A stretch of 62,789 nucleotides of DNA, filler included, from Candidatus Methanoxibalbensis ujae (GCA_026134085.1; 5 parts of 5 records of this genome joined end to end with filler, not necessarily neighbours in it); one strand, 5' to 3'; shown: positions 5,372-39,218, counted from the first letter of the whole stretch. The notes: generated by a model not told the origin, from the letters alone. Program-made: numbers and translations.

Positions 5372-6336
5372 GTGTCCGTCAGTTCGCCTCGTGATATCAC
5401 CCTCCATCTCAAAATGTTAAAAATGTTTTTGAAAGTGTAATACTGGGTGAAAAGCGCAAACAGCGTGACAAAGATGTATGAAGGATCTCTGAGAAAAAGA
5501 ATAAGAGAAAGAAAGACAGGAAATACATTGAACACAAGAAAATGCATACATGAGAGATACAGCGGATATATTTTTTCCTCCCTTATCAATTTTCCTTTTG
5601 ATATCAAAATGTGAAGGATGACATAAACTGCGGATGTCATTATCATCAGAAAATATGTGTATGGAATTCTCAAAAAAATAACACAGAGCAAAAACATGAG
5701 TGCAGCGGAGAGAAAATATATTATCTTCGATGTTTTAAATGCCTTCTCAATTGAGACAACAGCAAAAGTGCGGGTTCCTGTTCTCATGTCGGACTCGTAG
5801 TCGTATATCTGATGTGTGATGATTTCAGACATATGAACCGTGAAAGATGCTGCCAGGAATATTGCAGTTTCCACGCTGAAAATTGAGAAGAAGGAAAATA
5901 TCGCGAGAACGGGAAGCGCCTTTTCCACGAGTGCGCATACGACAATCCCGATGAAACCCATTTCCTTGAACCTTACTGGAGGGGAAGAATAAAAGGTGGC
6001 GAGCAGATATGAGGAAACATAAACAACAATAAAAAGAGGATTTCGGAGATAGAAAAAGTGAAGCGCACATATAATGGAGACCGCAATTATAATTATGATA
6101 AATGCTTTCCTTGATATATAATGAACTGCTCTTATTTTGCCAGTTGCGCTGTCAAATGGCATATCAAAGAAGTCATTTACAAGAAAACCATACATAAAAT
6201 AGAATCCAAGTGAGGATATCAGTGCGAAAAAATGCATCAGATCTACTTCACAAATGGTGGAAATGTATAGAAGCGCGAGAAGGGAGATATGCATGTCATA
6301 GCTCATCCACACCTTCCAGCCCCTGTATCCCATCAT
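5368..6336 (-). CDS. UbiA family prenyltransferase
   Basis: NDFFDMPFDSATGKIR and QIYDYESDMRTGTRT aspartate-rich motifs, YSSPPVRFKE, multiple TM helices. Confidence 0.85.
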   Translation of the reverse strand: MMGYRGWKVWMSYDMHISLLALLYISTICEVDLMHFFALISSLGFYFMYGFLVNDFFDMPFDSATGKIRAVHYISRKAFIIIIIAVSIICALHFFYLRNPLFIVVYVSSYLLATFYSSPPVRFKEMGFIGIVVCALVEKALPVLAIFSFFSIFSVETAIFLAASFTVHMSEIITHQIYDYESDMRTGTRTFAVVSIEKAFKTSKIIYFLSAALMFLLCVIFLRIPYTYFLMIMTSAVYVILHILISKGKLIREEKIYPLYLSCMHFLVFNVFPVFLSLILFLRDPSYIFVTLFALFTQYYTFKNIFNILRWRVISRGELTDT

Positions 6337-9327: not shown

Positions 9328-10722
9328 ATGGATCTTGAGGGCTTTGCAAAGCGGATGATTGAATGCGGTGTCAGTGAAGCGCAGATAATGGCGGAGATGA
9401 CGCGCAGAATCATGGAGATAAAGGATATAAGCGAGGAATCCGCCGCTCGCATATCAAAGGCGGTGATAGAGGAGGCAAAATGCACGCTGCCCGCGAGTGA
9501 AGGATGCATTGACTCTGACATTGACTCCGATTACCTGCAGAGCGTGCTGAAATCTGTGAAATCAGGCGTGCGAGCGGGCGAATTCGGCGTTGGCTCAAGA
9601 GGCAGGGGTGATTTCCACACACATCAGAAAATAGCGGATATCATAGGAAAGACATCTGCTGTGGCAGATTCATCAACAATGAGCGATTCGGGCGTTGTTC
9701 GCATTGAAGATGGCAGATACATTGTTGTGACGGTTGACGGCATTCACTCACGGCTGAGCGATTTTCCTTTTCTCGCAGGTTTTCATGTGGCGAGAGCTGC
9801 GCTGAGAGATGTCTATGTTATGGGAGCCAGGCCTCTTGCGCTTTTCTCAGACATTCATGTGGCGGATGATGCTGATGTTGCGAAGATATTTGAGCATATC
9901 GCCGGCATATCCGCCGTTTCAGAGGCTGTCGGCGTCCCCCTGATAACAGGATCGACACTGCGCATAGGCGGAGACATGGTCATAGGCACACGAATGACAG
10001 GCTGTGCCGGAGCGGTTGGCGTTGCCACCCGGATATTCACAAAAAGCGCTGCGAAGCCCGGTGACATAATTCTCATGTCAGAAGGGGCGGGCGGCGGAAC
10101 AATATCAACCGCAGCACTCTACAACGGCGAATACGATGTGGTGCGTGAAACTCTAAACATAAAATTTCTGAAGGCATGTGATGCAATCATAAAAAATGAA
10201 ATAAAAATTCACACAATGACGGACATCACAAATGGAGGAATAAGAGGTGATGCAAACGAGATCGCGAGTGTATCGGGGGTCAAACTCGTATTTTATGAGG
10301 AAAAAATAAGGTCAATGGTCGACAGACGCGTGCTTGACATGCTTGAAAAACTTAAAATTGATTATTTGGGAGTTTCTCTTGATTCTCTTCTCGTGATATG
10401 CCCCGAAAATGAGGCTGAGGAAGTTCGCAGGGTTGTTGAGCGTGCAGGCGTCAGGATTTCAGAAGTCGGTTTCGTGTCATCTTCTGCCGGCGAAGATGCA
10501 TGTGCCGAGATCGTGAGCAGCACAGATGGAACTCGCAGAAGGCTTGAGCCCAGGTTCAGGGAGTCCGCTTACACTCCTCTCAAAAAAGTCGTGGGCGAAA
10601 ATGTAACTGAGACGGAATACGAGAAAATGCGTCGTCTTGTTGAAAGTGCTGCAGAAGCGGCTATCAGAAAGAAAGAGCTTGTGAAGATGATGCTCCTCAC
10701 GAGGAGTCACGAGGAGTCATGA
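9328..10722 (+). CDS. AIR synthase (PurM/HypE-fold) related protein of methanogens
   Basis: GEFGVGSRGRGDF, DGIHSRLSDFPFLAGFH, GSTLRIGGDMV and MTDITNGG motifs. Confidence 0.85.
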   Translation: MDLEGFAKRMIECGVSEAQIMAEMTRRIMEIKDISEESAARISKAVIEEAKCTLPASEGCIDSDIDSDYLQSVLKSVKSGVRAGEFGVGSRGRGDFHTHQKIADIIGKTSAVADSSTMSDSGVVRIEDGRYIVVTVDGIHSRLSDFPFLAGFHVARAALRDVYVMGARPLALFSDIHVADDADVAKIFEHIAGISAVSEAVGVPLITGSTLRIGGDMVIGTRMTGCAGAVGVATRIFTKSAAKPGDIILMSEGAGGGTISTAALYNGEYDVVRETLNIKFLKACDAIIKNEIKIHTMTDITNGGIRGDANEIASVSGVKLVFYEEKIRSMVDRRVLDMLEKLKIDYLGVSLDSLLVICPENEAEEVRRVVERAGVRISEVGFVSSSAGEDACAEIVSSTDGTRRRLEPRFRESAYTPLKKVVGENVTETEYEKMRRLVESAAEAAIRKKELVKMMLLTRSHEES

Positions 10723-10770
10723 CGAGATATGAAATAAAACAAAAAACCATATCAATTATATCAATGATCA

Positions 10771-11394
10771 ATGGAGCGATTGAGAGAGGAAATAGAGCGA
10801 TTGAGAGTGGAGTGGTGCGCCGCATTCGGCGAGATGAAGAGGTATTTTTACAGTGAAATATTTGATGCATTCAGCATAACTTATGACCCAACAACATGGT
10901 ATGGATCAAGAAATCCTGCTCTAATATACCCATTAGAGCGCGAGATGAGATTCTCAACACCCAATGAATGCGTTAAATTTGATTATTATCAATCATTCTC
11001 TTCAAAACTTGGTATTATAAGTCATAATTTTGCCTATCTTGCCGACATATATGAGTTTTACAATGGAGATCTGCGCATGTTTCTGGTTGAGCAGTCCCGG
11101 TTTATCACAACGATTCAGCGTGCAAATTTGAGAATTGCGCATTTTGTGCCTGATGCGCTTGTTGAAGTGACCGCGCAGGGGCTGCGGAGCTTCATGCGTC
11201 TTAAAGGGCTCATTTCCGAGGCTTCTTATGAAAATGCTGAGAGTTTTCTGAGTTCTGGGGGAGCGATTGAACATGAAGGGGCGAATGCGCAGAAGGAGAT
11301 GCGCGGAGGGATCGGAGCGGATAAAAAATCAAAAAATCAAAAAAATCTAAAAAATCAAAAAAATCAGAAGCAGGGGAAGATATGTCAGCGATGA
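10771..11394 (+). CDS. Hypothetical protein
   Basis: 207-aa ORF, co-oriented with neighbours; low-complexity KNQ tail from AAAAATCAA repeats. Confidence 0.65.
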   Translation: MERLREEIERLRVEWCAAFGEMKRYFYSEIFDAFSITYDPTTWYGSRNPALIYPLEREMRFSTPNECVKFDYYQSFSSKLGIISHNFAYLADIYEFYNGDLRMFLVEQSRFITTIQRANLRIAHFVPDALVEVTAQGLRSFMRLKGLISEASYENAESFLSSGGAIEHEGANAQKEMRGGIGADKKSKNQKNLKNQKNQKQGKICQR

Positions 11395-11954
11395 GCGATG
11401 AGGCTGTAGAAAGGGATTCGGACGGAGCACGGCGCATACTCAGCAGCGAATATGAGGAAGTTCTCGTGCTGCTTGAAACACTCGGTCTGATGGGAATGCC
11501 GCGCAGGGACGATGTCATCGCGTTCTTTGAGGAATTGAACGAGCATTCGCCTGAATTCGTCAGCGTTTTTCTCAAGACGCAGAACTTCTCATATGCGGGT
11601 ATTGTGACACCACCATGGCTCAATGAGGACAGCAGATTCGGGATAAGGCGCAGGACATCGCTCATACACGCGGGCGGCATAATCGCCAGAATGCTTGAGA
11701 GGAGGATGCGCCGTGAAGATGCGATGAGCGCACTTGAAAACTTCACAGTGTATCTCGAGGATTTCAAGCCTGAGGAGGTTGTTGATATGCGCTGGATAAA
11801 TATGGAGATTGCAATGGAGCGCGTAGAGCGTTCACTGAGAGTTTACGAGCATAAAGCTTCAAGAAGAAGCTCCTTCCACTGCTACGAGGACTTCTCAAAT
11901 GCCCTGCGCAGGATATACGAGAGGGAAGAGCGCGCACTTTCCTATTTCAGGTGA
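11382..11954 (+). CDS. Hypothetical protein
   Basis: 190-aa ORF overlapping the upstream stop; host-like codon usage. Confidence 0.65.
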   Translation: MSAMSDEAVERDSDGARRILSSEYEEVLVLLETLGLMGMPRRDDVIAFFEELNEHSPEFVSVFLKTQNFSYAGIVTPPWLNEDSRFGIRRRTSLIHAGGIIARMLERRMRREDAMSALENFTVYLEDFKPEEVVDMRWINMEIAMERVERSLRVYEHKASRRSSFHCYEDFSNALRRIYEREERALSYFR

Positions 11955-13951: not shown

Positions 13952-14051
13952 NNNNNNNNNNNNNNNNNNNNNNNNNNNNNNNNNNNNNNNNNNNNTTAAT
14001 TAATTAANNNNNNNNNNNNNNNNNNNNNNNNNNNNNNNNNNNNNNNNNNNN
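13952..14051. other. Artificial contig linker
   Basis: N44-TTAATTAATTAA-N44, stops in all six frames. Confidence 0.99.
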
Positions 14052-14305
14052 AGCGGATGAGCTTCATTTTGCCTTCAATCTGCACCCTGTAGCGATATAC
14101 TCCCATCGGCTTCCCGGGAGTGTGATGTCTGTGGGCATTTTCACATTCAACACCTCGCGCTCACTGACTGTCGCTTGCGTCTCTTCACTGAGCGGGTGAG
14201 CGTAAGGGTGAGCTGATACATAACAAAGACATCACAGATTCAAAATGAACGGAAATCTATTCAAGCTGGATGGCGGCTTCAAGCTGATGTTGCGGTGGCG
14301 GAGAT

Positions 14306-17300
14306 ATGAGTGACTATGAGACATCTCTGCGGATAGAGCTTGAGAGAGCACTGGAAACTGCGAGGGAGGCGAGGAGCACTGGATTTGATCCTGCGCCGCA
14401 CACTGAGATAAGCGTGACGAACGATATTGCGGAGCGTGTTGAGGCGATTGTGGGCATAGAGGGCATAGGCGATCGTATAAAGGAGTATGAGCGGGAGGGG
14501 CTGAGCAGGGAGGAAATAGCGATAAGGATTGCGGATGATTTTGTTGCAGGCGTGTTCTGCGGTCGTGATGAGGATGTGCGCATTGTGGAGAATTCCGTGA
14601 GAACTGCGGTCGCAATACTCACCGAAGGTGTTGTTGCCGCTCCGATAGAGGGGATTTCAAAGATATCATCAGCGAGAAACGACGATGGCAGCAGGTTCAT
14701 CAGGATATATTATGCAGGGCCAATAAGAAGTGCTGGAGGGACTGCACAGGCGCTTTCAGTTCTTATTGCGGATATGGTGAGGCGGAAGCTCGGGTTTGCG
14801 AGTTACAAGCCGCGTGATGAGGAGGTTGCGAGATATGTGCTTGAGATCGCCACTTACGACAGGATAAGAGGTCTGCAATACACGCCAAGCGATGAAGAAG
14901 TGCGGATGATTGTTCGCAACTGTCCAATATGCATAGACGGCGAACCATCTGAGGAAGAGGAGGTTGACGCTTACAGGGATCTGGAGAGAGTGAGCACAAA
15001 CAATGTGCGCGGGGGCATGGCGCTCGTGATATGTGAGGGGATTGCTCTGAAAGCTGCGAAGATACTGAAGTATGTTGAGAAGTTGAACATTGATGGATGG
15101 GAGTGGCTGCGTGAACTCATCGCTCTGAAAAAATCGGATAAAAAAGAGGGAGACAGCTACCTTGAGGACATCATAGCAGGCAGACCGATGATAGGTAAAC
15201 CGTCGTGCAAGGGCTCTTTCAGGCTGCGATACGGAAGAGCACGAAACACAGGTCTCGCAACTGTCGGCATACATCCGGCGACAATGGCACTCCTTGAGTT
15301 CCTCGCTGTCGGCACGCAGATAAAGCCCGAAATGCCGGGAAAGGGCGCATGCATAGCACCTGTTGACTCAATTGAAGGCCCAACAGTGAAGCTGAAAGAC
15401 AAATCGCTCGTCAGACTGACATCTGTTGATGATGTCCTCTCACTCAGAGATGAGATATCAGAGATTGTTGACCTCGGTGAGATTCTCGTCGACTTCGGTG
15501 ATTTCCTTGAAAACGGCAGGAGACTGGAACCCGCTGCATACTGCCACGAATGGTGGCTGCTTGAACTGAAAGAAAAACTGAATTCTGACTGCGCTCATTA
15601 TGATGCTCATCTCAATAAAGAGGATTCAACCGGTGTTGTCGCGGCGTTATTGCGCGAGAAGCGTGTTCCCGGGATGAAGGAAGCGATAGAGATATCGCGC
15701 AGGTATGATATGCATCTGCATCCAGCATACACCTATCTCTGGGAAGACATCTCAGCTGAAGACAGGAAATTCCTCGCATCGTATATTCGTGAGAGAGGCA
15801 TATTGGAGCAATGCAGAGAGTGCGGCGGAGTTCTCATGATTCCGAGCGATGAAAATGTGAAAGCGATTCTTGAGAACCTTCTTGTGCCTCACCGAATCAT
15901 AAAGAAAAAGCGTTTCAACACGCTTTTCAATGTTGAGGAGCGTGAGTTCATATGCATTGAGAATCCCGCTGCACTTCTGGAGTGCCTGGGCATCAGTCAC
16001 AGAAACCTGCGAGAATCTGTGACTCCGCTTAAAACAAGGCAGAAAGCGCCTACAAGAATAGGCGTGAGGATGGGAAGACCGGAGAAAGCAAAGGAGCGGA
16101 AGATGAAGCCAGCACCCCATCTGCTTTTTCCCCTCGGAAACTTCGGCGGGAGGAACAGGTCTCTGCGTGATGCTATGCGAAATCGTGTGATTGATGTTGA
16201 GATAGGCGTCTGGCGCTGTAAATGTGGAAGGGAGTCCCTGTTTCCGCGATGTTCGTGCGGATCTCACATAACCGCCGAGCCCGTTAAGATGCAGAAAAGC
16301 GTGAATATATACGAAATGTTCAAACAAGCAACAGAAAAATTGGGAATTCATGTTCCAGATGTGAAATGTGTTATTGGATTGATATCAAAGAAAAAGGTTG
16401 CTGAGCATATAGTGAAAGGTATTCTCAGGGCAAAACATAATGTTTTCGTGTTTAAAGATGGAACAATACGATATGACATGACAAACATGCCGCTTACACA
16501 TTTCAAAGTGGAGGAGGTTGAGGGGCTTGATGTTGAAAAGGCGAGGGAGCTCGGATACACGCGTGACATATTTGGCAATCCTCTTGTTTCGGACTCGCAG
16601 GTGGTTGAGCTCAAGCAGCAGGACATCATAATTCCGGTGGATGCTGCGTTTTATCTCATGCGTGTGGCTGAGTTTGTCGATGATGAGCTCACGCATTTAT
16701 ACGGGCTTTCTCCTTACTACAATGTCAATCGCAGGGAGGATCTCATAGGAAAGCTCGTGATAGCACTCGCGCCTCACACATCCGCGGGAATTCTGGGAAG
16801 GATAATAGGATTCACGAGGGCTTCAGCGTGCTTCGCACATCCATTCTTTCATGCCGCGAAGAGAAGAAACTGCGATGGAGACGAAGATTCAATTATGCTT
16901 CTTATGGATGCTCTCCTCAACTTCTCAGTTTCATTCCTTCCTGAGAAAATAGGAGGGAAAATGGATGCTCCCCTTCTTCTTATCCCTTATATAAACCCGA
17001 AGGAAATAGACAAGGAGGCGCATAATTTGTCAATTGCATATGAATATCCGCTGTCTTTTTATGAGGCGACGCTCTCACGGAAAAAGCCTGTGGATGTCAA
17101 TATACCCACAGCATCTGAGCGTGTTTACGAGAGAAAGGATGCATATGGCTTCGGATACACGCATGAAACATCTTCAATCACGGCAGGCTGCCTTAAATCC
17201 GCATACAAGCGGCTTGAAAAGATGAGTGAGAAGATGGACGCTCAACTCCGCCTTGCTGAGATGCTGCGCTCAGTTGATGAGCGTGAAGTTGCGGAGATAA

Positions 17301-17608
17301 TCATAAAAAACCATCTCATTCGCGATATAAAAGGAAATCTGCGCGCATTCGGCACACAAAAAGTGCGGTGCTCACAGTGCAATGCAAAATATCGCCGAGT
17401 CCCTCTGAGCGGGAAATGCAAGAAATGCGGCGGCAATCTGCTTCTCACAGTGCACGCATCAAACATATCAAAATATCTGCATATCTCAATCCAGATAGCT
17501 CACAGATATGAGATCTCCGATGCACTGCAGATGCTTGAGATGCTTTCTGAAGACATACAATCGCTGTTCCAGGAGGATAATCAGCGATCGCTGACTGATT
17601 TTCTGTAA
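14306..17608 (+). CDS. polC: DNA polymerase D large subunit (DP2), intein-free
   Basis: TEGVVAAPIEGI, YYAGPIRSAGGTAQALSV, GSFRLRYGR, FHAAKRRNCDGDED catalytic motif, C-terminal zinc finger and PIP-like QRSLTDFL. Confidence 0.98.
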   Translation: MSDYETSLRIELERALETAREARSTGFDPAPHTEISVTNDIAERVEAIVGIEGIGDRIKEYEREGLSREEIAIRIADDFVAGVFCGRDEDVRIVENSVRTAVAILTEGVVAAPIEGISKISSARNDDGSRFIRIYYAGPIRSAGGTAQALSVLIADMVRRKLGFASYKPRDEEVARYVLEIATYDRIRGLQYTPSDEEVRMIVRNCPICIDGEPSEEEEVDAYRDLERVSTNNVRGGMALVICEGIALKAAKILKYVEKLNIDGWEWLRELIALKKSDKKEGDSYLEDIIAGRPMIGKPSCKGSFRLRYGRARNTGLATVGIHPATMALLEFLAVGTQIKPEMPGKGACIAPVDSIEGPTVKLKDKSLVRLTSVDDVLSLRDEISEIVDLGEILVDFGDFLENGRRLEPAAYCHEWWLLELKEKLNSDCAHYDAHLNKEDSTGVVAALLREKRVPGMKEAIEISRRYDMHLHPAYTYLWEDISAEDRKFLASYIRERGILEQCRECGGVLMIPSDENVKAILENLLVPHRIIKKKRFNTLFNVEEREFICIENPAALLECLGISHRNLRESVTPLKTRQKAPTRIGVRMGRPEKAKERKMKPAPHLLFPLGNFGGRNRSLRDAMRNRVIDVEIGVWRCKCGRESLFPRCSCGSHITAEPVKMQKSVNIYEMFKQATEKLGIHVPDVKCVIGLISKKKVAEHIVKGILRAKHNVFVFKDGTIRYDMTNMPLTHFKVEEVEGLDVEKARELGYTRDIFGNPLVSDSQVVELKQQDIIIPVDAAFYLMRVAEFVDDELTHLYGLSPYYNVNRREDLIGKLVIALAPHTSAGILGRIIGFTRASACFAHPFFHAAKRRNCDGDEDSIMLLMDALLNFSVSFLPEKIGGKMDAPLLLIPYINPKEIDKEAHNLSIAYEYPLSFYEATLSRKKPVDVNIPTASERVYERKDAYGFGYTHETSSITAGCLKSAYKRLEKMSEKMDAQLRLAEMLRSVDEREVAEIIIKNHLIRDIKGNLRAFGTQKVRCSQCNAKYRRVPLSGKCKKCGGNLLLTVHASNISKYLHISIQIAHRYEISDALQMLEMLSEDIQSLFQEDNQRSLTDFL

Positions 17609-17656
17609 CTTTCTTTTTCTGTTATTGTGATGATGATGGTGAGGAGGGATTGAGAG

Positions 17657-18817
17657 ATGAGCGGTCTGACGAAGGATGATATAATGAGGGCGATATATCA
17701 CTGTGTGAAGTGCAAATTGTGCAGCATTGCATCATTTCATCCGAGAGAGGAATGGAGCCCTTTGTGTCCCAGCGGTGCATACTTTGGATTTCAGGCATTT
17801 TACGCGCCAGGGAAGATGGAGATATTCAGAGAACTGCTTGAAGGGCGTATGAATCGTTCTGAAGGTCTTATTGATGCTGTTTTCGCCTGCACGCTTTGCG
17901 GCGCATGCTATGAGAAGTGCCGTCGTGTGTCAAAGGTAGAGATTCCTCTCGTCGAGATATTTGAGGAGATGCGCAGTGAGCTCTCTGCTCTTGGATGGCA
18001 GTGCGATGTGCATCGTGAGATTGCTGATAAAGTGCGGAACACGAGGAACGCATATGGAGAGGAGCGAGCATCTTTTGATCTCAGGAATCTCAGGCCATCG
18101 GAAGGTGCGAATGTGCTCTATTTCATAGGATGCACCGCGAGATACAGGGTGCCTGAGATAGCAGATGCGATGCTGCGCATTCTAAACGAGAGTGTTGAAT
18201 ATCAGGTGCTTGAGGATGAGTGGTGCTGCTGCTCGGTTCTCATTCGGACTGGTCAGCGAAATACGGATATCGTGAGGGAGCATGTGCGTCACAATTATGA
18301 TGCGATAGTGAAAAGCGGCGCTGATACAGTGGTGTTCACATGTCCTGGCTGCTTGAAAACGCTGAAAATTGATTATCCGATGCAGGGCGCCGACTTAAGC
18401 GATGCTGGAATCGAGCTTATCCATGCTACAGAGTTCATCAGGCGTATATACGGCGAGAGTGCTCTTAAAAAATTGCCTCTAACTGTGACATATCATGACC
18501 CCTGCCATCTCGGTCGTGATCTCCGCATATATGATGCTCCTCGTGATGTGCTGCGCGGTGCTGTGCAGGAACTGCGAGAGATGCGCCGTGTGAGGGAGGA
18601 GGCCTGGTGCTGCGGTTCAGGTGGCGGCGTAAAATCCGCTTTCAACGATTTTGCAGTATGGTGCGCGTCCGAACGATTGAAGGAGGCGGCTGAGACAGGT
18701 GCTGATGCCATTGTGAGCGCATGCCCCTTCTGCAAGCGCAACCTGCGTGATGCTTCAACTGGCATGCGAGTGCTTGATGTTGTTGAGGTTATTGAGGAAG
18801 CGTTGCTGCGCCGCTAG
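17657..18817 (+). CDS. HdrD/GlpC-like Fe-S protein (4Fe-4S plus two CCG domains)
   Basis: CVKCKLC, CTLCGACYEKC, FIGC, WCCCS, CPGC, YHDPCHLGR, CCGSGGG, ACPFC. Confidence 0.9.
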   Translation: MSGLTKDDIMRAIYHCVKCKLCSIASFHPREEWSPLCPSGAYFGFQAFYAPGKMEIFRELLEGRMNRSEGLIDAVFACTLCGACYEKCRRVSKVEIPLVEIFEEMRSELSALGWQCDVHREIADKVRNTRNAYGEERASFDLRNLRPSEGANVLYFIGCTARYRVPEIADAMLRILNESVEYQVLEDEWCCCSVLIRTGQRNTDIVREHVRHNYDAIVKSGADTVVFTCPGCLKTLKIDYPMQGADLSDAGIELIHATEFIRRIYGESALKKLPLTVTYHDPCHLGRDLRIYDAPRDVLRGAVQELREMRRVREEAWCCGSGGGVKSAFNDFAVWCASERLKEAAETGADAIVSACPFCKRNLRDASTGMRVLDVVEVIEEALLRR

Positions 18818-18826
18818 CGGCTTAAG

Positions 18827-18901
18827 TGCTCCGCCGGGGATTTGAACCCCGGTCGTGGGCTCGAGAGGCCCACATGATTGGCCGAGCTACACCAGCGGAG
18901 C
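18827..18901 (-). tRNA. tRNA-Glu (CTC)
   Basis: Reverse complement GCTCCGCTGGTGTAG...GTGGGC-CTCTCGA-GCCCAC...GGTTCAAATCC...GCGGAGCA folds as a cloverleaf. Confidence 0.95.
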
Positions 18902-18910
18902 ATTTTTCTT

Positions 18911-18986
18911 CCCTCCCGACCGCCAGACAGGTTCCTGCTTCGGAAAATTACTTCCGCATGGCGGAGTTGACCATCTCAACCCCCCC
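18911..18986 (-). ncRNA. Candidate structured RNA / long 5' leader of tRNA-Glu
   Basis: Four nested inverted repeats with G-U pairs favouring the minus strand; TTTATAT box at 19012-19006. Confidence 0.45.
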
Positions 18987-19070
18987 ATTATAATATGAGC
19001 GGCCCATATAAATAATAACACTCCTTCTCCGCTCCAGAAATCAGCGGCAGCTTTCATTTGGTGGTGTGCC

Positions 19071-19125
19071 GCTGTTGCTCCGTGGGAGGTGCTGTTGCTC
19101 TGTGGGAGGTGCTGTTGCGGGAGGT
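19071..19125. repeat. 20-bp tandem repeat GCTGTTGCTCYGTGGGAGGT (about 2.5 copies)
   Basis: Read directly; lies just past the stop of the phoU-like gene. Confidence 0.85.
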
Positions 19126-19127
19126 CA

Positions 19128-20201
19128 TCAGAATTCCTCCTCTTCTGCCGACTTAATGCACATGTTTATGGTGACTTCAGCTATATCAGCGCAGTATTTA
19201 GATATTCTTGCGAGGCTTTCAAGTATGGAGAGGACATGAATTTTCACTGTCATATCTCCTTTATCTGTCAAAACACTCTCATAAGCTTCTTCAACATGTT
19301 TAACAATTTCATCTGTTTCTTTAATCACGGAATTTGAGCGCTTCATATCCATTTCAGAAAGTGATTCCATCACATCAGCAAACACTTTTTTCACATGATC
19401 TCCTATATCTCTTATCATGGATATCCGCTCTTCGGGTATAATTTCGTTTATTATGCTTTGAAACGCGATGTTTTCGATGTGGTCGCCTATGCGTTCTATG
19501 CTTTTAACGATTATACGATATCCGAGGCTGTTTCTGGGCGAGCCTATGCCTATTTTCTGAGAGAGTTCGTAATCACTCATAATAGCTTTAAGCTGTCTCA
19601 CGATGAGAAGATAGAATCTGTCTATTTCATTATCACGCTCCATCACATCTTTTGCGAGGTTTATATCGTGATTTTCAATTGCGCTCAGCGCGTCTTCAAG
19701 CATTGCGAGCACTATATCCCTCATCCTTTTTATCGCATCGCATAGCGTGAAGTCCTCATATTTGAGGAAGCTCTGCAGTTGTATTTCAGTTGATGATTCT
19801 CCGACCACCTCCATGCCTATCAGCCTTTTTCTCACCTCCTCCTTTATTCTTTTTCGCTCCTCGGCGTTGAATCCGTGCTCGGCGAGCAGTTTTATTTCGT
19901 CATATCCCACGAGATACAATGCGATGAGGTATCTCAGGTTTTCCTCAAACCCCTCTCTGTCAGATAGTTTGAACTCAACTCTCCGCATTATGCGCTCATC
20001 TCCGCCTTCAACTCCTCCGCGCTCTGGCATCAGAAGCAATGTGTTTCTGCCATATCTGAGAAGGAGCATCTCATCTCCCTTTTTGATGCCGAGCTCCTTC
20101 ACCCACTTTATCGGCAGCGATATTATGTATGTTGAGCCGCCTGTGAGCTGTATTCTCCTTTTCTCTCTCCTCATCTTCACGCGCCCCCCTTCCTCTGTCA
20201 T
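19128..20201 (-). CDS. phoU: Phosphate uptake regulator (AbrB-like N-domain plus PhoU domains)
   Basis: RRIQLTGGSTYIISLPIKWV AbrB motif; DNEIDRFY and ERIGDHIENIA PhoU motifs. Confidence 0.9.
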   Translation of the reverse strand: MTEEGGRVKMRREKRRIQLTGGSTYIISLPIKWVKELGIKKGDEMLLLRYGRNTLLLMPERGGVEGGDERIMRRVEFKLSDREGFEENLRYLIALYLVGYDEIKLLAEHGFNAEERKRIKEEVRKRLIGMEVVGESSTEIQLQSFLKYEDFTLCDAIKRMRDIVLAMLEDALSAIENHDINLAKDVMERDNEIDRFYLLIVRQLKAIMSDYELSQKIGIGSPRNSLGYRIIVKSIERIGDHIENIAFQSIINEIIPEERISMIRDIGDHVKKVFADVMESLSEMDMKRSNSVIKETDEIVKHVEEAYESVLTDKGDMTVKIHVLSILESLARISKYCADIAEVTINMCIKSAEEEEF

Positions 20202-20251
20202 GAATATACGCAGACACAGCTATCAATACCTTTATATTACCTATATGTAAC

Positions 20252-20284
20252 ATCTCTCCGGTATAGAAATCTCTCCGGTATAGA
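20252..20284. repeat. Direct repeat ATCTCTCCGGTATAGA x2 in the divergent promoter region
   Basis: Exact 16-bp copies with 17-bp period between phoU and the ATPase gene. Confidence 0.85.
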
Positions 20285-20373
20285 GAGTGGAAATACAGGA
20301 AAAGAGAGAGGGAGGTGCGATAAAGCGAGCATTTTTATAGGAGCATGCAGCATATAAAATAGGAGAAGGGGAG

Positions 20374-22002
20374 ATGGATATGGACGATTATGTGCCAAGG
20401 CATGAGTACGAGCGATTGGAAAGTGAATATCGCAGACTGAAGCGCAAGTATGAGGAAGTTGAAGCATACAAGGAGGACCTTGAGAAGCTCATATTCAGGG
20501 CAAGGTCTCCGCCTCTTGATTGTGGGTTCGTTGTTGAGAAGAGGGATGACGGTGCTGTCGTGAATCTGAACGGCGCGCTCAAGGTTCTTCCATATGGTCC
20601 GCTCAGTGATGAGGAGCTTGCGAAGATAGAGGAGGGCAAGTATGTCTTCATAGGCAGGATACCTGACAAGAACAGCCCCAACGGATTCACCATAGGAATC
20701 ACGAAGGTCTATGACCGCGCAGTCAATCTTGAGGTCGGCGAGGTAGAGGCTGTGTGGGAGGAGAACGGTGAGTGGATAAGTGTCATCGCAACCGGCAGAG
20801 GGCACACGAAGATATACAAGAAGCTCAATGAGAAAGAGCGCGAAATGGTCAGGGAAGGGCAGAAAGTGGGCATGCTGCCTGGCACTGGAGATGTGAAAAA
20901 GAGCTACAAAACCAAGGAGTTCGTGAGATATGAGGTCACGAAATCCCCTGGTGTGAGCTTCAACGATATAGGAGGACTTGAGGAGGTGAAAAAGGAGCTT
21001 ATAAGAAGCATAATATTGCCCATGCTGAATCCTGATGATTATTCTGTTTTCGGCGAGGCATCAAGAAGAATATTGCTTTACGGACCGCCTGGATGTGGAA
21101 AGACGATGTGTGCGAAGGCTCTCGCATCAGCACTTCCAAACTGTGAGTTTGTGAAGGTTGGTGCTGGAGAGCTTTTCAGCATGTGGCTCGGAGAATCCGA
21201 GAGGAATGTGCGTGAGATATTTAATATGGCGAATCGCAAGCTTGAGGAGGGTGAAAACGACTATGGCATCATATTTTTTGATGAGATAGATGCACTCGCT
21301 CAGGAGCGTGGGATGTATGCAGGCTCATCAGGAGCGCCTGAGAGGGTTACGGGTCAGCTGCTTGACATACTTGACGGTTTTTACTCACTCCACCCCCATC
21401 TCACTGTCATAGGCGCGACAAACAGGTTGCATCTCATAGATTCCGCATTCAGGGCGAGATTTGATAAGATCATAGAGGTTCCCAAGCCGGATAAGAAGGC
21501 TGCTCTCGCCATATGCGAGATATACGCGATGAAAGTGCCTCTTGACAAATATCTTGTTGAGGAGAAAGGCTCTGAGGATGACGCTCGCAGATATGTTGTG
21601 AATGAGCTCGTTGAATACATGTTCAGGGACGAGGTCATTGAGACTGAAATAGGCAGGATAAAGCGCGGAGAGACAATAACAGGAAGGTTCATCGCTCAGA
21701 TATTTAACTATGCAAAGGACAGGGCGCTTGAGGAGAGGACGCTTCTGAAAGTGCATGAGGGCATGGTTAGGGACAGGAAGCTGTTGAACATGTGGAGTGG
21801 GGAGGGCATCGCATCGCTGCTCAATGCAGATGAGCGTGTGAAGGAGCTCAAAAGGAAATACAAGAGCGCTGAGGAGATAGGTGTCACATTTGAACTTCTG
21901 AAAGAGGGCTTTGAGAAGTATGTCCAGCGGAGAGCTGAGGAAATACTCGCATCGGGATTTGACACGGAGAGCTTTGAGGTTGAAACAGGAATGCACTACT
22001 GA
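20374..22002 (+). CDS. ARC/Mpa-type proteasome-associated AAA+ ATPase
   Basis: N-terminal coiled coil ending in SPP, two OB-like segments, PGVSFNDIGGL, Walker A GPPGCGKT, pore loop MWLGESE, Walker B IIFFDEID, SRH GATNR...RFD; adjacent to PafA/Dop homologues. Confidence 0.85.
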   Translation: MDMDDYVPRHEYERLESEYRRLKRKYEEVEAYKEDLEKLIFRARSPPLDCGFVVEKRDDGAVVNLNGALKVLPYGPLSDEELAKIEEGKYVFIGRIPDKNSPNGFTIGITKVYDRAVNLEVGEVEAVWEENGEWISVIATGRGHTKIYKKLNEKEREMVREGQKVGMLPGTGDVKKSYKTKEFVRYEVTKSPGVSFNDIGGLEEVKKELIRSIILPMLNPDDYSVFGEASRRILLYGPPGCGKTMCAKALASALPNCEFVKVGAGELFSMWLGESERNVREIFNMANRKLEEGENDYGIIFFDEIDALAQERGMYAGSSGAPERVTGQLLDILDGFYSLHPHLTVIGATNRLHLIDSAFRARFDKIIEVPKPDKKAALAICEIYAMKVPLDKYLVEEKGSEDDARRYVVNELVEYMFRDEVIETEIGRIKRGETITGRFIAQIFNYAKDRALEERTLLKVHEGMVRDRKLLNMWSGEGIASLLNADERVKELKRKYKSAEEIGVTFELLKEGFEKYVQRRAEEILASGFDTESFEVETGMHY

Positions 22003-22054
22003 TGAGTGATGGTGTATCAACAGCAGCGCTGATGAGTGATGGTGTATCAACAGC
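21999..22054. repeat. 26-bp direct repeat spanning the ATPase stop codon
   Basis: CTGATGAGTGATGGTGTATCAACAGC at 21999-22024 and 22029-22054. Confidence 0.9.
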
Positions 22055-22152
22055 GGGAGGAGTATGACGGGTGATGAGTTACAAGAGATGAGTTACGAGT
22101 GACGAGTGACAGGAGATAAGTGACGGGAGACAGGAGGAGGAGAAAAAAAAGG

Positions 22153-23919
22153 ATGGAGAAGGAAGATCTCAACAGATGGCAGGGTATTGAGCACGAGTTC
22201 AGGGTGGGCATATCATCTGAATCCCCCGAGTTATACAGGTATGCGCGGTTTTATCATGTTGATGAGGTCATACATGCGCTTGAGAACTACGAATTCTTTG
22301 ACGGCGAGCGTGCGGTGTGCACGAGGATCTGCCGAAGGAACGATGGATTTCTGCGCAACGGATCTCGCATTTACATATGCACGGGAGGTCATCTTGAGAT
22401 CGCAACGCCTGAATGCAGAAACGCATTTGAAGTGCTGAAATACGACAAAGCATCAGAAATATACATGCAGATAGGCGTTGAGGAAGCGAACAAGAAGTAT
22501 AGGATAGGTGAGCGAAAGATAAAGAACGCACACATACAGTGTTGGAAGGCGAATGTTGAGCTTGACAAGCGATACAGCAGGGGCACTCACGAATCCTATA
22601 TCATAGAAAGGAAGAGGTTTGTCGGGAAAGAGCACCTTTTCATTCCTTTCCTCGTGCTTCGCAAGATTTTCTTCGGAGCGGGCGGCTTCATAGCTGAAAG
22701 AGAGGGCATAATATATGTGATATCGCCAAAAGCTATGGTCGCACGCCGTGTGTTCACAGAATCTCCATCTCAATGGCCTATACTGTCGTCAAGAGACGAG
22801 CCACTCACCACGAAGGACAAATACAGAGTTCATGTGACATCGGGGGAGGGACTGCGCTGTGAAGTCACGAGACTGCTCAACAACGCAATCACCTCATATG
22901 TGCTTGATGCGATCGAATCAGGAAAAATAAGGCATGTGGATGACATATGGAATCCCCTGCAGACATTCAAGGAGATATCATCAAATATCTCAGGAGAATG
23001 GCGGATAAAACTGAGGAACGGGAGGAAAGTGAGCGCACTTGATTACATTGAATCGCATTATCTTGAGCCAATAGAGTCTCTTTTTGAGGAGAGAGAGGTG
23101 TCATATTGGGATAAATATGCGCTTGATACATTTAAGAGACTGTGTGAAAAATTCCGTCAGGGATTGATAGAGGATAAATATGTGATTCGCAGAGTTGAAT
23201 GGGTGCTTAAGTGGTATGTTGTCATGCATGAGATAGAGGAGTTTGAATACAAATGCAGTCCTCGCAGCAAGTTTGACTATCGCAACATGTACATCATGAG
23301 CGAGCGCCTTGAGAAACAGATAGCAGCATCCTTTGATTTCACGAACCTCTGTGATTATGATCTGTATGAGCGTGTCGCAGATCGCATAGGCGTTGAGCGC
23401 ATACTGACAGACGAGGATATAGGGGAGGCGCTTCTGTTCCCGCCCAAGGACTCGAGAGCTGAGTTGAGGATGAGGCTCGCGAAGGAGTTCAAGGGCGCCG
23501 CTGTGAACTGGAACAAGATAACGATGAAAAGAGAGCCGAAGGTGCAGATAGAGCTCACGCGTCCCGGCACGGAGGAGTATGCAATGCTTTTTGAGAGGTA
23601 TCCCGAGCTGGCGAGAATGCCCAACGCGATGGTTGTTTTCCTCAGAGAGGAGCACGGCGGAAGAGAGCCATCAAGACAGGTGCTCGTCAGACTGCTCACA
23701 AATGAGGAGGACATAACGGGATGGGAGGAGGAGATAATACGGGAGATCAGAAGCAGAATATCCCGTAATCCCTATCTGGATTACCTGCTGTATGCGAACA
23801 ACCGCACATATCGGTTTGATGAGCTTGACGGATGGAACGAGGAGACGATACGCAGAAAGGTGGAGGAGATAAAAGAGAGCGAGCAGAATGATGAAGCCCT
23901 AATGCGCTCAGATGAATGA
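22153..23919 (+). CDS. PafA-like (Pup/UBact ligase family, GS/GCS fold) protein
   Basis: GIEHEF, FLRNGSRIYICTGGHLEIATPEC, YDKASE, GTHESY, IPFLVLRKIFFGAG, RDEP, RVHVTSGE and VEWVLK align with PafA motifs GIExEY, [51 protein letters not shown]. Confidence 0.85.
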   Translation: MEKEDLNRWQGIEHEFRVGISSESPELYRYARFYHVDEVIHALENYEFFDGERAVCTRICRRNDGFLRNGSRIYICTGGHLEIATPECRNAFEVLKYDKASEIYMQIGVEEANKKYRIGERKIKNAHIQCWKANVELDKRYSRGTHESYIIERKRFVGKEHLFIPFLVLRKIFFGAGGFIAEREGIIYVISPKAMVARRVFTESPSQWPILSSRDEPLTTKDKYRVHVTSGEGLRCEVTRLLNNAITSYVLDAIESGKIRHVDDIWNPLQTFKEISSNISGEWRIKLRNGRKVSALDYIESHYLEPIESLFEEREVSYWDKYALDTFKRLCEKFRQGLIEDKYVIRRVEWVLKWYVVMHEIEEFEYKCSPRSKFDYRNMYIMSERLEKQIAASFDFTNLCDYDLYERVADRIGVERILTDEDIGEALLFPPKDSRAELRMRLAKEFKGAAVNWNKITMKREPKVQIELTRPGTEEYAMLFERYPELARMPNAMVVFLREEHGGREPSRQVLVRLLTNEEDITGWEEEIIREIRSRISRNPYLDYLLYANNRTYRFDELDGWNEETIRRKVEEIKESEQNDEALMRSDE

Positions 23920-23944
23920 TCAATAACGAGATGACGGGCGGAGG

Positions 23945-25588
23945 GTGTGGGTGGTGTCAGCGATATCATCGTGTGGAACACTTCGCAAGATAAGGGGTGT
24001 TGAGCAGGAATATCCTGTGAGTGCGACAGCTTCATTCAATCCCAACATCCTTGTGAATGCAGCAATTCAGGGGCTCCGCCGCAGGAATTATTCGAGGATA
24101 GTGTTCTGGGACATTTCAACCGAGATATCGCAGGAGCAGCATGAGCACAGGATAACAAACTCATACGGTGAGAACGGCTGCCGCATATACAATGACATGG
24201 GGCATCTTGAGATCTCCACACCTTCTTACAACGATCCTTTTGATGCAATAGCATACGATAAGGCATCTGAGATATATGCGTTCATCGCATCAAAAAGCGC
24301 TGGTCTCGCGCTTAAGAACCGTGTTTTTATACATAAAAACAATGTTGCAAACTTCTTCGTAAGCATCGCAGGAGGAGTGACAGGACTGAGCGGTATAGGA
24401 GGAGCTGCTGTCAAAGAGGAGAGGCGCGTGCGAACAAACACATACGCAACACATGGAAACCTCCTCACCGAGCGAAGGGCATGCAAGGACTGGAGAAGGG
24501 TTGAGCGCGCACTTATACCGTGGGTTATCTCAAGGATAATATTCACAGGTGCCGGTGATGTGATATCGGGAGATGTCATGGGAAAAACAGGCATAAAATT
24601 CGTGATATCTCCGAGAGCAATGTTCGTCATGCGAAAATCCTCTCTCTCAACAACATCTGCAAGAGGAATTCTCAACACGAGAGATCAGCCACATGCCTCA
24701 TTCAAATACTGGCGCCTTCACGACATCCACTTTGAGGCTCTCCGCTCTGAATATGCTATTTTCATGCGGGATATAACCAACGCTCTTGTGATCCGTGCGT
24801 TTGAGCTCGGATATCTTGATGATGCTCCTGAAATAGAAGATCCTGTGGGCACATTCAAACGTATTTCAGCAGATACGCAGGATTGTGACTGGCGCATAAA
24901 CCTCAAAAACGGCGAAAAGACAGATGCAGTGGGCATACTCTGGTTCTATCTCTCCAAGATTGAGGAAATGCTCACAAGCTCCGAAACGGCTGGAGCGGAG
25001 ATGAATGAGGATGAGGACAGGGAGGAGCAGAAGTGGGAGAGCATTGGATTAAAAGCGTTTGAGGAGATGCTTGATCTGTTTTCGGAGAGAAGGGTGGAGG
25101 AGTTCGTAGATGGCATTGACTGGGTGACGAAGCTCGCGCTCCTCGTCAACTATAAGCCACGAAAAATATCCGAGGGCATACACATATGCAACCAGTTCGC
25201 ATTGCTTGATGAAAGTGTCCTCTTCTATGTGAACGACGGAAAGGAGAGGATGGAGAGCAAGTGCCTTTTCTCGCCGAAGGAATCACTCAGCTTCGCACGA
25301 AAGAAGCTGCATGAGGTGGCGTGGCATCGCCTGTTCGATCGTGTGAGATATGCGCTCAGGAACGCGCCTGAAGACACGAGAGACTTCTTCAGGGCGGAGA
25401 TGTTGAAGCACTTCAGCGCACATGTGAGGGGAGTCAGCTGGTCAACGCTGATCCTTGAGAACGCAAAAATAATACTGGATGAGCCTTTCATGCTGAACAG
25501 GCGTGAGATAGGAGATATATCTGAATATGAGCTCAGTGAAATCCTTTCAGAAGCGAAAAGGTTATATCCAGATAAACTCATTCTATAA
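23945..25588 (+). CDS. Dop-like (Pup/UBact deamidase/depupylase family) protein
   Basis: GVEQEY, Dop-loop-like insert with FWD, NGCRIYNDMGHLEISTP, YDKASE, HKNNV, SRIIFTGAG, RGILNTRDQPHA, RLHDI, IDWVTK. Confidence 0.85.
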   Translation: MWVVSAISSCGTLRKIRGVEQEYPVSATASFNPNILVNAAIQGLRRRNYSRIVFWDISTEISQEQHEHRITNSYGENGCRIYNDMGHLEISTPSYNDPFDAIAYDKASEIYAFIASKSAGLALKNRVFIHKNNVANFFVSIAGGVTGLSGIGGAAVKEERRVRTNTYATHGNLLTERRACKDWRRVERALIPWVISRIIFTGAGDVISGDVMGKTGIKFVISPRAMFVMRKSSLSTTSARGILNTRDQPHASFKYWRLHDIHFEALRSEYAIFMRDITNALVIRAFELGYLDDAPEIEDPVGTFKRISADTQDCDWRINLKNGEKTDAVGILWFYLSKIEEMLTSSETAGAEMNEDEDREEQKWESIGLKAFEEMLDLFSERRVEEFVDGIDWVTKLALLVNYKPRKISEGIHICNQFALLDESVLFYVNDGKERMESKCLFSPKESLSFARKKLHEVAWHRLFDRVRYALRNAPEDTRDFFRAEMLKHFSAHVRGVSWSTLILENAKIILDEPFMLNRREIGDISEYELSEILSEAKRLYPDKLIL

Positions 25589-25610
25589 TATGATGAGGGA
25601 GGAAGAAATA

Positions 25611-25898
25611 ATGAGTTATTCAGCAGCGGAGGATGCAATGATCGTGACACGGCCTTCGTGGCTCCTGCGAGCAGATGCGGAGGAGGAAGTGGAAGAGGAA
25701 ATTGAGGTGGAAGAGTCAAAACCTGAGGAGACAGTTGAGGTGAAGGATGAGGATAAAGGACTATCATCAATAATGGAGCGATTAAAAGAATATGAGAAAA
25801 AGAAAAAAGCCGCTGATCTCGTGAGCAAATTGCGAGGAAAAAAAAGAGTGAACAAGAAAATCATGCCTTATGAAATATACGCAACCGCCGGTGAATGA
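25611..25898 (+). CDS. Candidate Pup/UBact-like modifier protein (C-terminus YATAGE)
   Basis: Small Glu-rich, low-complexity ORF directly after the dop-like gene, ending G-E-stop; GGAGG-type SD before ATG 25611 (alternative start 25638). Confidence 0.75.
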   Translation: MSYSAAEDAMIVTRPSWLLRADAEEEVEEEIEVEESKPEETVEVKDEDKGLSSIMERLKEYEKKKKAADLVSKLRGKKRVNKKIMPYEIYATAGE

Positions 25899-25934
25899 TT
25901 TCTCCATCCCTTTTCGGCGGCTTGTTGCTCTCTG

Positions 25935-26015
25935 CTTTGTTTTTCTCTGTTTTAACTCCTGTTTTTTATTTTTTTTATCTTTTTTTCCTTTTTCTTTTAT
26001 CTCTTCATCTCTTTT
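25935..26015 (+). terminator. Oligo-T-rich archaeal terminator after the tagging operon
   Basis: Multiple T-tracts immediately downstream of the modifier gene. Confidence 0.55.
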
Positions 26016-26494
26016 GAGAGGCAAAGAGTTGGAAGAAGGAATCTGCTCAATCATCATTATCTGCTCAATCATCATTAAGTCACGCTTGCCACCACGGCGC
26101 CTCCACCTCAAATCGGGGCTGGACTTTCATCCCGGCTTTATTTTTTACCGATGGTCATTCAGGAGACAGGAGCATTTGCAGAAGTGGATAAATCGTAAGA
26201 GTGCGGAAATTGCAGTTTTGATAATATTAATATCTTTTACAGCATCCGGAAGCAATATCACATAGCAGTTAACGGTCACAAATTGTCAACTGTTGAGAAT
26301 ATCACTGTGATGTTAACAGAATGTGCAGTTCATGTGTGGTGAACAACTCTTTCAGGCGGAGTAACTTGGGCATCCTTCGTTCAATGTAGTGGTCTGGGTG
26401 CTTTCGCATCTTTACCCATAGCTCCTATATAAATATAGGTAAGTGATAGGTGAGAGAGGGCGTGAAAAGCGGAAGGGAGGTGATGAGAGAAGAA

Positions 26495-26538
26495 ATGGAA
26501 GGGAAGAGTAAGATTGCAGGGGCGTTGATTGCAGCAGT
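26495..26538 (+). CDS. 5' fragment of a signal-peptide-bearing protein, cut by contig end
   Basis: GGAGGTGA SD then MEGKSKIAGALIAA. Confidence 0.5.
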
Positions 26539-26638
26539 NNNNNNNNNNNNNNNNNNNNNNNNNNNNNNNNNNNNNNNNNNNNTTAATTAATTAANNNNNN
26601 NNNNNNNNNNNNNNNNNNNNNNNNNNNNNNNNNNNNNN
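26539..26638. other. Artificial contig linker
   Basis: N44-TTAATTAATTAA-N44. Confidence 0.99.
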
Positions 26639-39118: not shown

Positions 39119-39218
39119 NNNNNNNNNNNNNNNNNNNNNNNNNNNNNNNNNNNNNNNNNNNNTTAATTAATTAANNNNNNNNNNNNNNNNNNNNNNNNNN
39201 NNNNNNNNNNNNNNNNNN
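39119..39218. other. Artificial contig linker
   Basis: N44-TTAATTAATTAA-N44. Confidence 0.99.

Follow-up and report, generated by a model that had tools for sequence, protein, structure and literature searches.

A candidate Pup-like protein-tagging operon in ANME-1 archaea

Introduction

Small protein modifiers have been tied to the proteasome in bacteria and in archaea. Pup, the modifier of the actinobacterial Pup-proteasome system, ends in Gly-Gly-Gln or Gly-Gly-Glu, and the archaeal SAMPs are beta-grasp proteins that are activated at a C-terminal Gly-Gly by an E1 enzyme, UbaA. UBact, found in some Gram-negative bacteria, was reportedly described by Lehmann et al. in 2017 as a set of PafA/Dop homologues with a small Gly-Glu-ended tag outside Actinobacteria. 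The available text of Iyer et al. (2008; PMC2588565) characterizes Pup as a small protein of 50–90 amino acids (aa) with a C-terminal G[EQ], whose gene stands next to a gene of the PafA family, and lists Pup beyond Actinobacteria in bacterial phyla only. Pupylation is treated, in the accessible parts of three papers (PMC2588565, PMC6466877, PMC3511204), as a bacterial invention that recruited an archaeal-type proteasome. Here we describe a four-gene operon at positions 20374–25898 of a 62,789-nucleotide stretch of DNA (hereafter the window) from the anaerobic methanotrophic (ANME-1) archaeon Candidatus Methanoxibalbensis ujae (GCA_026134085.1). Comparison of its genes suggests that Pup-like protein tagging also exists in archaea.

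A literature search found no report of pupylation in ANME-1; the 2017 UBact paper lay outside this search, so an earlier mention of archaeal homologues is possible. The main texts of two large ANME genomics papers do not contain 'pup', 'proteasom' or 'ubiquitin'.

Operon architecture and proposed pathway

The window consists of five contigs of one draft genome joined by N44-TTAATTAATTAA-N44 linkers, and the operon lies on one of them (14052–26538; 12,487 bp). The initial annotation described four co-oriented genes on one contig followed by a T-rich tract, and both open reading frames (ORFs) and sequence confirm this arrangement. The ORFs, all on the plus strand, span 20374–22002 (542 aa), 22120–23919 (599 aa), 23945–25588 (547 aa) and 25527–25898 (123 aa). 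With probable start codons, the four genes read as follows.

20374–22002, plus strand: AAA+ ATPase with an N-terminal coiled coil, an RSPPL junction, two OB barrels, one AAA module and a C-terminal tail ending TGMH[FY]
22153–23919, plus strand: gene 2, PF03136 enzyme, candidate ligase; the ORF opens with GTG at 22120, the probable start is ATG at 22153
23945–25588, plus strand: gene 3, PF03136 enzyme, candidate deamidase/de-tagging enzyme or non-ligase partner; PF03136 score 217.1 bits
25611–25898, plus strand: tag of 95 aa; its N-half is variable and acidic, its C-half is conserved, basic and helical, and it ends ...KKIMPYEIYATAGE

The start of gene 2 is placed at 22153, where the consensus of its orthologues begins and GGAGGAGG lies upstream. 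For the tag, ATG 25611 is the probable start: GAGGGAGG lies 8 nt upstream of it, and a start at 25527 would overlap gene 3 by 62 nt. The spacers between the four genes then measure 150, 25 and 22 nt.

The resemblance to the actinobacterial Pup-proteasome system is one of parts and partnership. Both place two PF03136 paralogues beside a small, largely disordered protein that ends in G[EQ]. In both, the partner is an AAA ATPase whose N-terminal part comprises a coiled coil and tandem OB domains (predicted in the present case). A further likeness is the predicted position of the ANME tag, in the groove of an enzyme with its tail at the active site. Unlike the actinobacterial system, the ANME operon has an archaeal host, enzymes that are not orthologues of PafA or Dop, and the gene order ATPase-enzyme-enzyme-tag without linked 20S proteasome genes. 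Its gene 2 has Cys for the catalytic Asp of PafA and Dop, and its gene 3 is without two of their Glu residues. Pup models find no match in its tag, whose end is YAT[SA]GE; its ATPase is by sequence no closer to ARC than PAN is, and has the tail GMH[FY] in place of the GxYx of Mpa/ARC. With the archaeal SAMP/Urm1 and PAN/Cdc48-20S machinery the locus would share archaeal tagging with a link to the proteasome, and the genome has a PAN, a Cdc48-like ATPase and a 20S proteasome of its own. Unlike SAMP/Urm1, however, the ANME tag is predicted to be helical or disordered and ends in Glu, and the ANME enzymes have a glutamine-synthetase-like fold.

Drawing on knowledge of the enzyme family and on the anatomy of the locus, we favor, at a probability of roughly 0.6, an archaeal counterpart of pupylation in which E1-independent gamma-glutamyl-to-lysine tagging would feed an unfoldase and the archaeal 20S proteasome. 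The steps we infer are these. Gene 2, with its glutamine-synthetase fold, would use ATP to activate by phosphorylation the side-chain carboxylate of the tag's terminal Glu, and would join that carboxylate to lysines of target proteins without an E1. Gene 3 would remove the tag by isopeptide hydrolysis, and would deamidate Gln-ended tags to Glu beforehand. The ATPase, as a ring-forming unfoldase that bears coiled coils and a pair of OB domains, would recognize the conserved helical half of the tag, unfold the tagged protein and probably feed it to the unlinked archaeal 20S by means of its conserved C-terminal tail.

Two divergent members of the Pup ligase family

Both enzymes belong to the Pup_ligase family PF03136, as their initial labels of PafA-like and Dop-like implied. 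Profile search gives 196.3 bits for gene 2 and 217.1 bits for gene 3, exceeding the cut-off of 25 bits about eightfold. The finer assignment in those labels did not stand. On the NCBIfam models gene 2 scores 161.8 bits for PafA and 155.3 bits for Dop, and gene 3 scores 143.8 and 181.9 bits, respectively. The curated equivalog cut-offs are 551.3 bits for PafA (TIGR03686) and 492.3 bits for Dop (TIGR03688), and canonical representatives of the two score 400–697 bits. Against PDB sequences, gene 2 reaches 93.7 bits with Dop and 74.1 bits with PafA, and gene 3 reaches 128.7 and 59.4 bits. Public records carry the names 'Pup--protein ligase' or 'PafA2 family protein' for these genes.

We placed the enzymes in an unrooted 68-row tree that comprised the window genes, their orthologues, a third paralogue and representatives from the best 150 of 2063 matches. 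It splits with full support into canonical PafA, Dop and intermediates on one side, and gene-2 types and gene-3 types, each with further relatives, on the other. Approximately unbiased (AU) tests on a 28-row set under LG+G4, with groups chosen after the tree had been seen, rejected a grouping of gene-3 types with Dop at p = 0.00012 (log-likelihood difference 84.7), a split that at once groups gene-2 types with PafA, and likewise a grouping of the gene-3 type with PafA (p = 9e-5). By these scores, tree and tests, genes 2 and 3 are certain members of PF03136 that are orthologues of neither PafA nor Dop and form a separate divergent clade.

The third paralogue of this genome is of the gene-2 (Cys) type and lies unlinked to the operon, on contig C56 of the genome (G000) at 4095–5672, with 525 aa from the first Met. 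Its orthologues occur in some other ANME-1 genomes (L057, L060).

Complementary active sites

We aligned the active sites of 54 sequences of gene 2 and the third paralogue, 44 of gene 3, 28 and 18 metagenome relatives of the two enzymes, and 4 canonical sequences. In every group, all or almost all sequences retain the motifs GxExE[YF], NG.R.Y and HxE, together with H157, R225, R236 and H238. There is one sizeable exception: among the 28 metagenome relatives of the first enzyme, 25 have Leu or Val for the Arg of NG.R.Y. The GxExE, HxE, TPE and HE residues we take to be the nucleotide-metal site, and gene 2 retains all of them, with no conserved Glu of the metal/ATP site lost.

The two enzymes depart from the canonical pattern at different places. 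An Asp in a loop of PafA and Dop is, in the available text of one review, the proposed catalytic base or nucleophile and essential for both enzymes (PMC3511204). At this position, which follows NG.R.Y, all 54 sequences of gene 2 and the third paralogue have Cys (Cys87 in gene 2), and all 44 gene-3 sequences keep the Asp. PDB alignment sets the gene 2 Cys against the Asp of PafA 4b0t and of Dop 4b0r, and the same column is where the PafA-Pup fusion entry 4bjr differs from 4b0t. Gene 3 in turn carries E98S and E158G, each in 44 of 44 sequences, at two positions where canonical PafA, canonical Dop and gene 2 all have Glu; its PDB alignment reads STPS versus STPE and THGN versus CHEN. Since gene 2 has Cys where PafA has its catalytic Asp, its second chemical step may differ from that of PafA, and with two conserved Glu lost, ATP-dependent phosphorylation by gene 3 becomes less likely.

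The foremost rival reading exchanges the roles of the two enzymes, with gene 3 as the ligase and gene 2 as a thiol-type amidase that de-tags or deamidates. Amidases typically have Cys as nucleophile, the existence of a third enzyme of the Cys type, encoded apart from the operon, would suit a trimming function, and the scores given above, from PDB sequences and models alike, leave gene 2 no more PafA-like than Dop-like. Moreover, the Asp that is called essential in the text of PMC3511204 is kept by gene 3 alone, in 44 of 44 sequences. Yet gene 3 has invariably lost E98 and E158, which are kept in all ATP-using relatives sampled, while gene 2 keeps all conserved Glu; and the complementary pattern recurs in the metagenome cassette family described below. 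We regard exchanged roles as unlikely and retain gene 2 as the candidate ligase and gene 3 as the candidate deamidase or de-tagging enzyme.

A conserved small protein with a Gly-Glu end

The initial annotation saw in the fourth gene a small acidic protein ending in GE. The end is as described, since the protein terminates in YATAGE and is kept behind the enzymes; the acidity applies to the first half only, as residues 1–50 have an isoelectric point of 4.05 and residues 51–95 one of 9.93. A phmmer search with the 95-aa query found a homologue directly behind gene 3 in 33 loci, out of 40 whose downstream sequence is long enough. Thirty-two of these adjacent tags end in GE and one (L038) in GQ. 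Their N-halves are variable and Glu-rich, and their last ~50 residues are nearly invariant, ending KKIMPYEIYAT[SA]G[EQ].

Fourteen loci have gene 3 and no tag match. Seven of them have too little downstream sequence and seven have at least 499 bp. We checked the genomes of five of the latter seven, both Alkanophaga included, and each has exactly one tag gene elsewhere (E ≤ 1.5e-26), ending YATSGE. The GE-ended protein is thus conserved, behind the enzymes (33 loci) or elsewhere in the genome (5/5 genomes checked). Across the order we saw 39 tags of about 74–95 aa, 38 ending in GE and one in GQ. The latter, at L038:7120–7365, is the sole ANME-1 tag seen with a Gly-Gln end, which implies a deamidating activity in that lineage.

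Against Pfam and NCBIfam at E ≤ 10, the tag matched no family beyond chance level, with no UBact model among the responses, and an ESM Atlas search for look-alikes yielded no usable match. A six-frame search of the whole genome with the Pup model gave at best 14.3 bits (E 0.148) at another place, which is chance level. As judged by Pfam and NCBIfam models, the tag is a family of its own. It fits the description of Pup in the available text of Iyer et al. (2008; PMC2588565) in being small, in ending in G[EQ] and in adjoining a gene of the PafA family.

Structure prediction places the tag on gene 2. A predicted complex of gene 2 with tag residues 46–95 reached an interaction prediction score from aligned errors (ipSAE) of 0.88 in three runs, and the best of three controls reached 0.00. 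The score mark used for such complexes is reached by 116 of 157 solved complexes and by 2 of 215 mismatches. The predicted local distance difference test (pLDDT) score of the partner was at least 76, and at least 80% of the contacts were common to the runs. In the model, tag residues 63–79 lie on the C-terminal domain of the enzyme, and the tail (81–94) contacts residues 26, 28, 89–91 and 147–155 of the active-site region.

We also considered that the small protein may be no protein tag but a carrier or precursor, with a small-molecule amine coupled to its C-terminal Glu or with some other modification there. Models for such a role are LysW-type amino-group carrier proteins and peptide natural products. 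The altered active sites could mean a different acceptor, the corresponding small proteins in metagenomes are only 33–54 aa long, and the available text of PMC2588565 relates PF03136 to glutamine synthetases and gamma-glutamyl-cysteine synthetases, enzymes that work on small amines. However, small-molecule synthesis would leave no role for the ATPase of the operon, a coiled-coil/double-OB unfoldase of the proteasomal kind, and no conserved biosynthetic genes stand beside the operon. The tag, moreover, has a long conserved helical region beyond its end, as expected for recognition by a second partner. A carrier function is in our view improbable, and tagging of proteins accounts better for this company.

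A putative Mpa-like unfoldase without ARC orthology

The first gene had been annotated as an ATPase of the ARC/Mpa type, and this label holds for predicted architecture only. By sequence the protein matches the Pfam AAA family (PF00004, 123.7 bits), and among NCBIfam models PAN comes first (179.3 bits), followed by CdvC, ARC (159.9 bits) and Cdc48, all far under their cut-offs. Its scores of 165.4 and 179.3 bits on TIGR01242 and PRK03992 lie under the PAN cut-off of 500 bits, and its score of about 159.9 bits on the ARC/Mpa model TIGR03689 lies under that model's cut-off of 504.75 bits. The genome has a canonical PAN (608.3 bits) on another contig, and a Cdc48-like gene also stands elsewhere.

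The N-terminus is predicted to form a long helix (9–43), followed by an RSPPL coiled-coil/OB junction as in PAN, and the N-domain profile matches PAN 2wg5 at this junction (E 0.0039). An AlphaFold2 model of residues 40–190 (pLDDT 82) has two five-stranded OB barrels. Its top Foldseek matches are the inter-domains of Mpa/ARC (3fp9, 7px9, 5kzf and 2wfw), with query-normalized template modelling scores (TMq) of ~0.5, E ~1e-4 and 13–16% identity; the full-length model, at a mean pLDDT of 56, was left out of the fold search. Judged from this model, the ATPase is Mpa-like in architecture and in operon partnership, and by no score an ARC orthologue: its tandem-OB N-domain resembles Mpa/ARC best, but its ARC score falls under the cut-off and below that of the genome's PAN.

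Among 45 orthologues, 44 share the C-terminus E[ED]TGMH[FY], and L is the last residue of the remaining one. Genes for the 20S alpha and beta subunits are present in the genome, on contigs C25 and C2. The operon contig has no 20S subunit gene (PF00227), in line with the reported absence of prcAB from the locus.

Tagging might also serve an end other than degradation, with the ATPase unfolding or disassembling tagged proteins independently of the 20S. Corynebacteria that lack a proteasome employ Pup and ARC in such a degradation-free way. The locus has no 20S genes, alpha and beta being on other contigs; the ATPase tail is not a canonical HbYX or GxYx motif; and the metagenome cassette occurs without an ATPase (0/39 loci), so tagging and unfolding are separable. 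Set against this are the conserved aromatic end of the extreme C-terminus (44/45), as in proteasome-docking ATPases, and a complete 20S in the genome. We hold tagging without degradation to be quite unlikely, and favor delivery to the 20S.

A related enzyme pair in metagenomes

The nearest relatives of the two enzymes outside ANME share 30–46% identity with them and likewise score low on both the PafA and the Dop model. Three of them are labelled 'Candidatus Bathyarchaeota archaeon' in NCBI, a label only. With the alignment of close relatives we fetched and examined 39 metagenome loci. In the cassette found there (L066–L102), an enzyme of the gene-2 type is followed by one of the gene-3 type, both in the same divergent clade as the ANME enzymes. 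All 15 complete cassettes of that order have an ORF of 33–54 aa directly after the second enzyme, ending E[VI][VI]AP[PS]G[EQ], and three further loci have such an ORF before or between the enzymes. The last residues are APPG[EQ] or APSGQ, with Gln at the end in 9 of 14 distinct sequences. No ATPase gene was found near the cassette in any of the 39 loci.

The active sites repeat the pattern of the ANME pair. The first enzyme has His at the Asp position in 25 of 28 sequences; the second keeps the Asp and has no Glu at E98 or E158. The metagenome cassette is thus like the ANME operon in its two enzyme types, their order, their complementary active sites and a small G[EQ]-ended ORF; unlike it, the ANME operon has an ATPase, and its tags are longer and mostly Glu-ended, where those of the cassette are mostly Gln-ended. 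When the two tag families were aligned with hhalign, only the last 9 residues matched, at E 0.04 and a probability of 1.3%, so their homology is not shown by sequence.

Other genes near the cassette vary. Four loci (L074, L077, L087 and L093) have a gene for a 568–576-aa Amidohydro_3 protein divergently upstream, and L093 has a MoeB/ThiF/UbaA-like E1 gene just downstream, at 10354–11406 on the minus strand.

A more far-reaching reading takes these enzymes as an old archaeal lineage of Pup-like tagging in its own right, and not as a recent bacterial copy. It would comprise an obligatory enzyme pair with complementary sites, one with a full ATP/metal site and Cys or His, the other with Asp and a reduced metal site, together with new G[EQ] tags; in ANME-1 the Cys may serve as a thioester carrier between activation and transfer, and the module would be coupled to a double-OB unfoldase that feeds the 20S. 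As a whole this reading is tentative, and we think it rather doubtful. If the Cys thioester were true, it would represent ubiquitin-like chemistry on a non-ubiquitin scaffold.

An order-wide gene set of archaeal origin

The four-gene set is conserved across the order. We found 58 related loci, almost all labelled ANME-1/Methanophagales or Alkanophaga. Fifty-two are of the operon type, and in all of these the ATPase gene stands upstream of gene 2; gene 3 comes next in 47. Four of the remaining five have 0–1067 bp of downstream sequence, and in the fifth, L022, the expected place of gene 3 is taken by other genes, namely an inositol-monophosphatase-like ORF and two small ORFs (L022:9762–12060). 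The gap between genes 2 and 3 measures 455–1137 bp in L010, L019, L020, L024, L025 and L051. In the closest relative, whose gene 2 is 88% identical, gene 3 is split into overlapping ORFs (9823–11154 and 11067–11786 within L043:9823–11786), which on its sequence is a frameshift or sequencing error.

We sampled 401 genomes of the phylum for PF03136. Within the ANME-1/Alkanophaga order, 53 of the 54 genomes from the same family have it, as do both from the sister family (55 of 56 other genomes). Outside the order it was found neither in the 10 genomes that represent other families of the class nor in the 334 others of the phylum. The neighborhood survey proposed with the initial annotation thus bears out a conserved, near-universal gene set (53/54 and 2/2 genomes), and with this near-universality in the order, the long residence that the annotation suggested for the operon is credible; native codon use agrees with it.

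The draft genome comprises 1.99 Mb in 86 contigs, with 89% completeness and 0.7% contamination. The operon contig also encodes, as annotated, polC, the large subunit of archaeal DNA polymerase II (14306–17608; TIGR00354, 1336.5 bits), and further an HdrD/TfrB-like iron-sulfur protein, tRNA-Glu and a divergent AbrB-PhoU protein. The codon use of the three large operon genes falls at the 55th–77th percentile of the genome's long ORFs and is typical of the genome; the initial annotation had seen it match that of neighboring core genes. Contigs from four other studies cover the whole operon contig, and depth is even across polC and the operon. At the boundary between the gene 2 stop and the gene 3 start (window 23919), 6 bases are missing from the contigs of each of the other four runs, so that strains differ in this spacer.

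Contamination by bacterial DNA, or a recent foreign insert in a mis-binned contig, would have to be reconciled with these observations. The window is a concatenation of contigs, and a few public records bear bacterial or unrelated labels (Desulfobacteria, Nitrosotalea, Bathyarchaeia). Yet the contig carries the archaeal polC, codon use is native, depth is even in the contigs of four other studies, and the gene occurs in 53 of 54 genomes of the family, on ANME-1 contigs of up to 123 kb. Nor does PADLOC assign any family beyond generic AAA matches. With polC on the contig, native codon use and even depth, the archaeal origin of the operon is sound; order-wide presence completes the grounds on which we reject contamination, which we consider extremely improbable. 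A known defense system was likewise rejected: the PADLOC matches are to generic AAA proteins (IetA, TRIP13) for the ATPase, and there are none for the enzymes or the tag.

The surroundings of the operon, read from sequence, include the following features.

20202–20373, plus strand: intergenic region with A/T-rich TATA-like boxes TTTTTATA and ATATAAAA and, ahead of the start of the ATPase gene, a purine-rich stretch for ribosome binding; putative promoter
25899–26010, plus strand: T-rich tract after the tag stop, 62% T, with five T runs of 5–8
19128–20201, minus strand: SpoVT/AbrB-type (Pfam MazE_antitoxin) N-domain and PhoU domains (PhoU 101.4 bits, PF04014 40.8 bits), divergent from the operon
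13952–14051, 26539–26638, 39119–39218 and 51581–51680: artificial linkers that join contigs C42, C44, C46, C47 and C49; adjacency across them is meaningless

The T-rich tract is probably an archaeal oligo-T terminator of the operon. A homologue of the AbrB/SpoVT-PhoU protein is found at this position, likewise divergent, in 42 of the 58 related loci and is missing from both Alkanophaga loci (L041, L042), which have more than 3 kb of upstream sequence. This neighbor may be a regulator of the operon.

Discussion

The family of the two enzymes, the conservation and linkage of four genes, the G[EQ] end of the small protein, its predicted interface with gene 2 and the Mpa-like fold predicted for the ATPase N-domain together point to an archaeal counterpart of pupylation. 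A number of observations weigh against it. Gene 2 is without the catalytic Asp and gene 3 without two conserved Glu, so neither enzyme has a canonical active site, and because both stand outside the canonical PafA/Dop clade, function cannot be transferred to them by orthology. Six of the tags were compared with the Pup family PF05639, and none matched at E ≤ 10. The score of the predicted complex may reflect likeness more than binding of this particular pair, because a PafA-Pup complex has been solved (4bjr). On the side of the ATPase, the genome's own PAN, at 226.3 bits, outscores the operon ATPase, at ~159.5 bits, on the ARC model, and the 20S genes are unlinked to the operon. Mpa docks to the proteasome through a C-terminal GxYx motif, according to the available text of PMC6466877; the tail G-M-H-[FY] fits this in its Gly and its terminal hydrophobic residue and has His in place of Tyr.

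If the reading is true, a Pup-like system in archaea that also have PAN, Cdc48 and a 20S proteasome would reopen the question of where this tagging chemistry originated and how it came to be related to the proteasome. An E1-independent tagging route would be added to archaeal proteostasis. The natural variants of the active site, with Cys or His for Asp in one enzyme and two Glu lost in the other, are relevant to the mechanism of PafA and Dop, which is under debate. ANME-1 archaea control the release of marine methane and are not growable in pure culture, and a regulatory system present across their order would offer a handle for metaproteomics.

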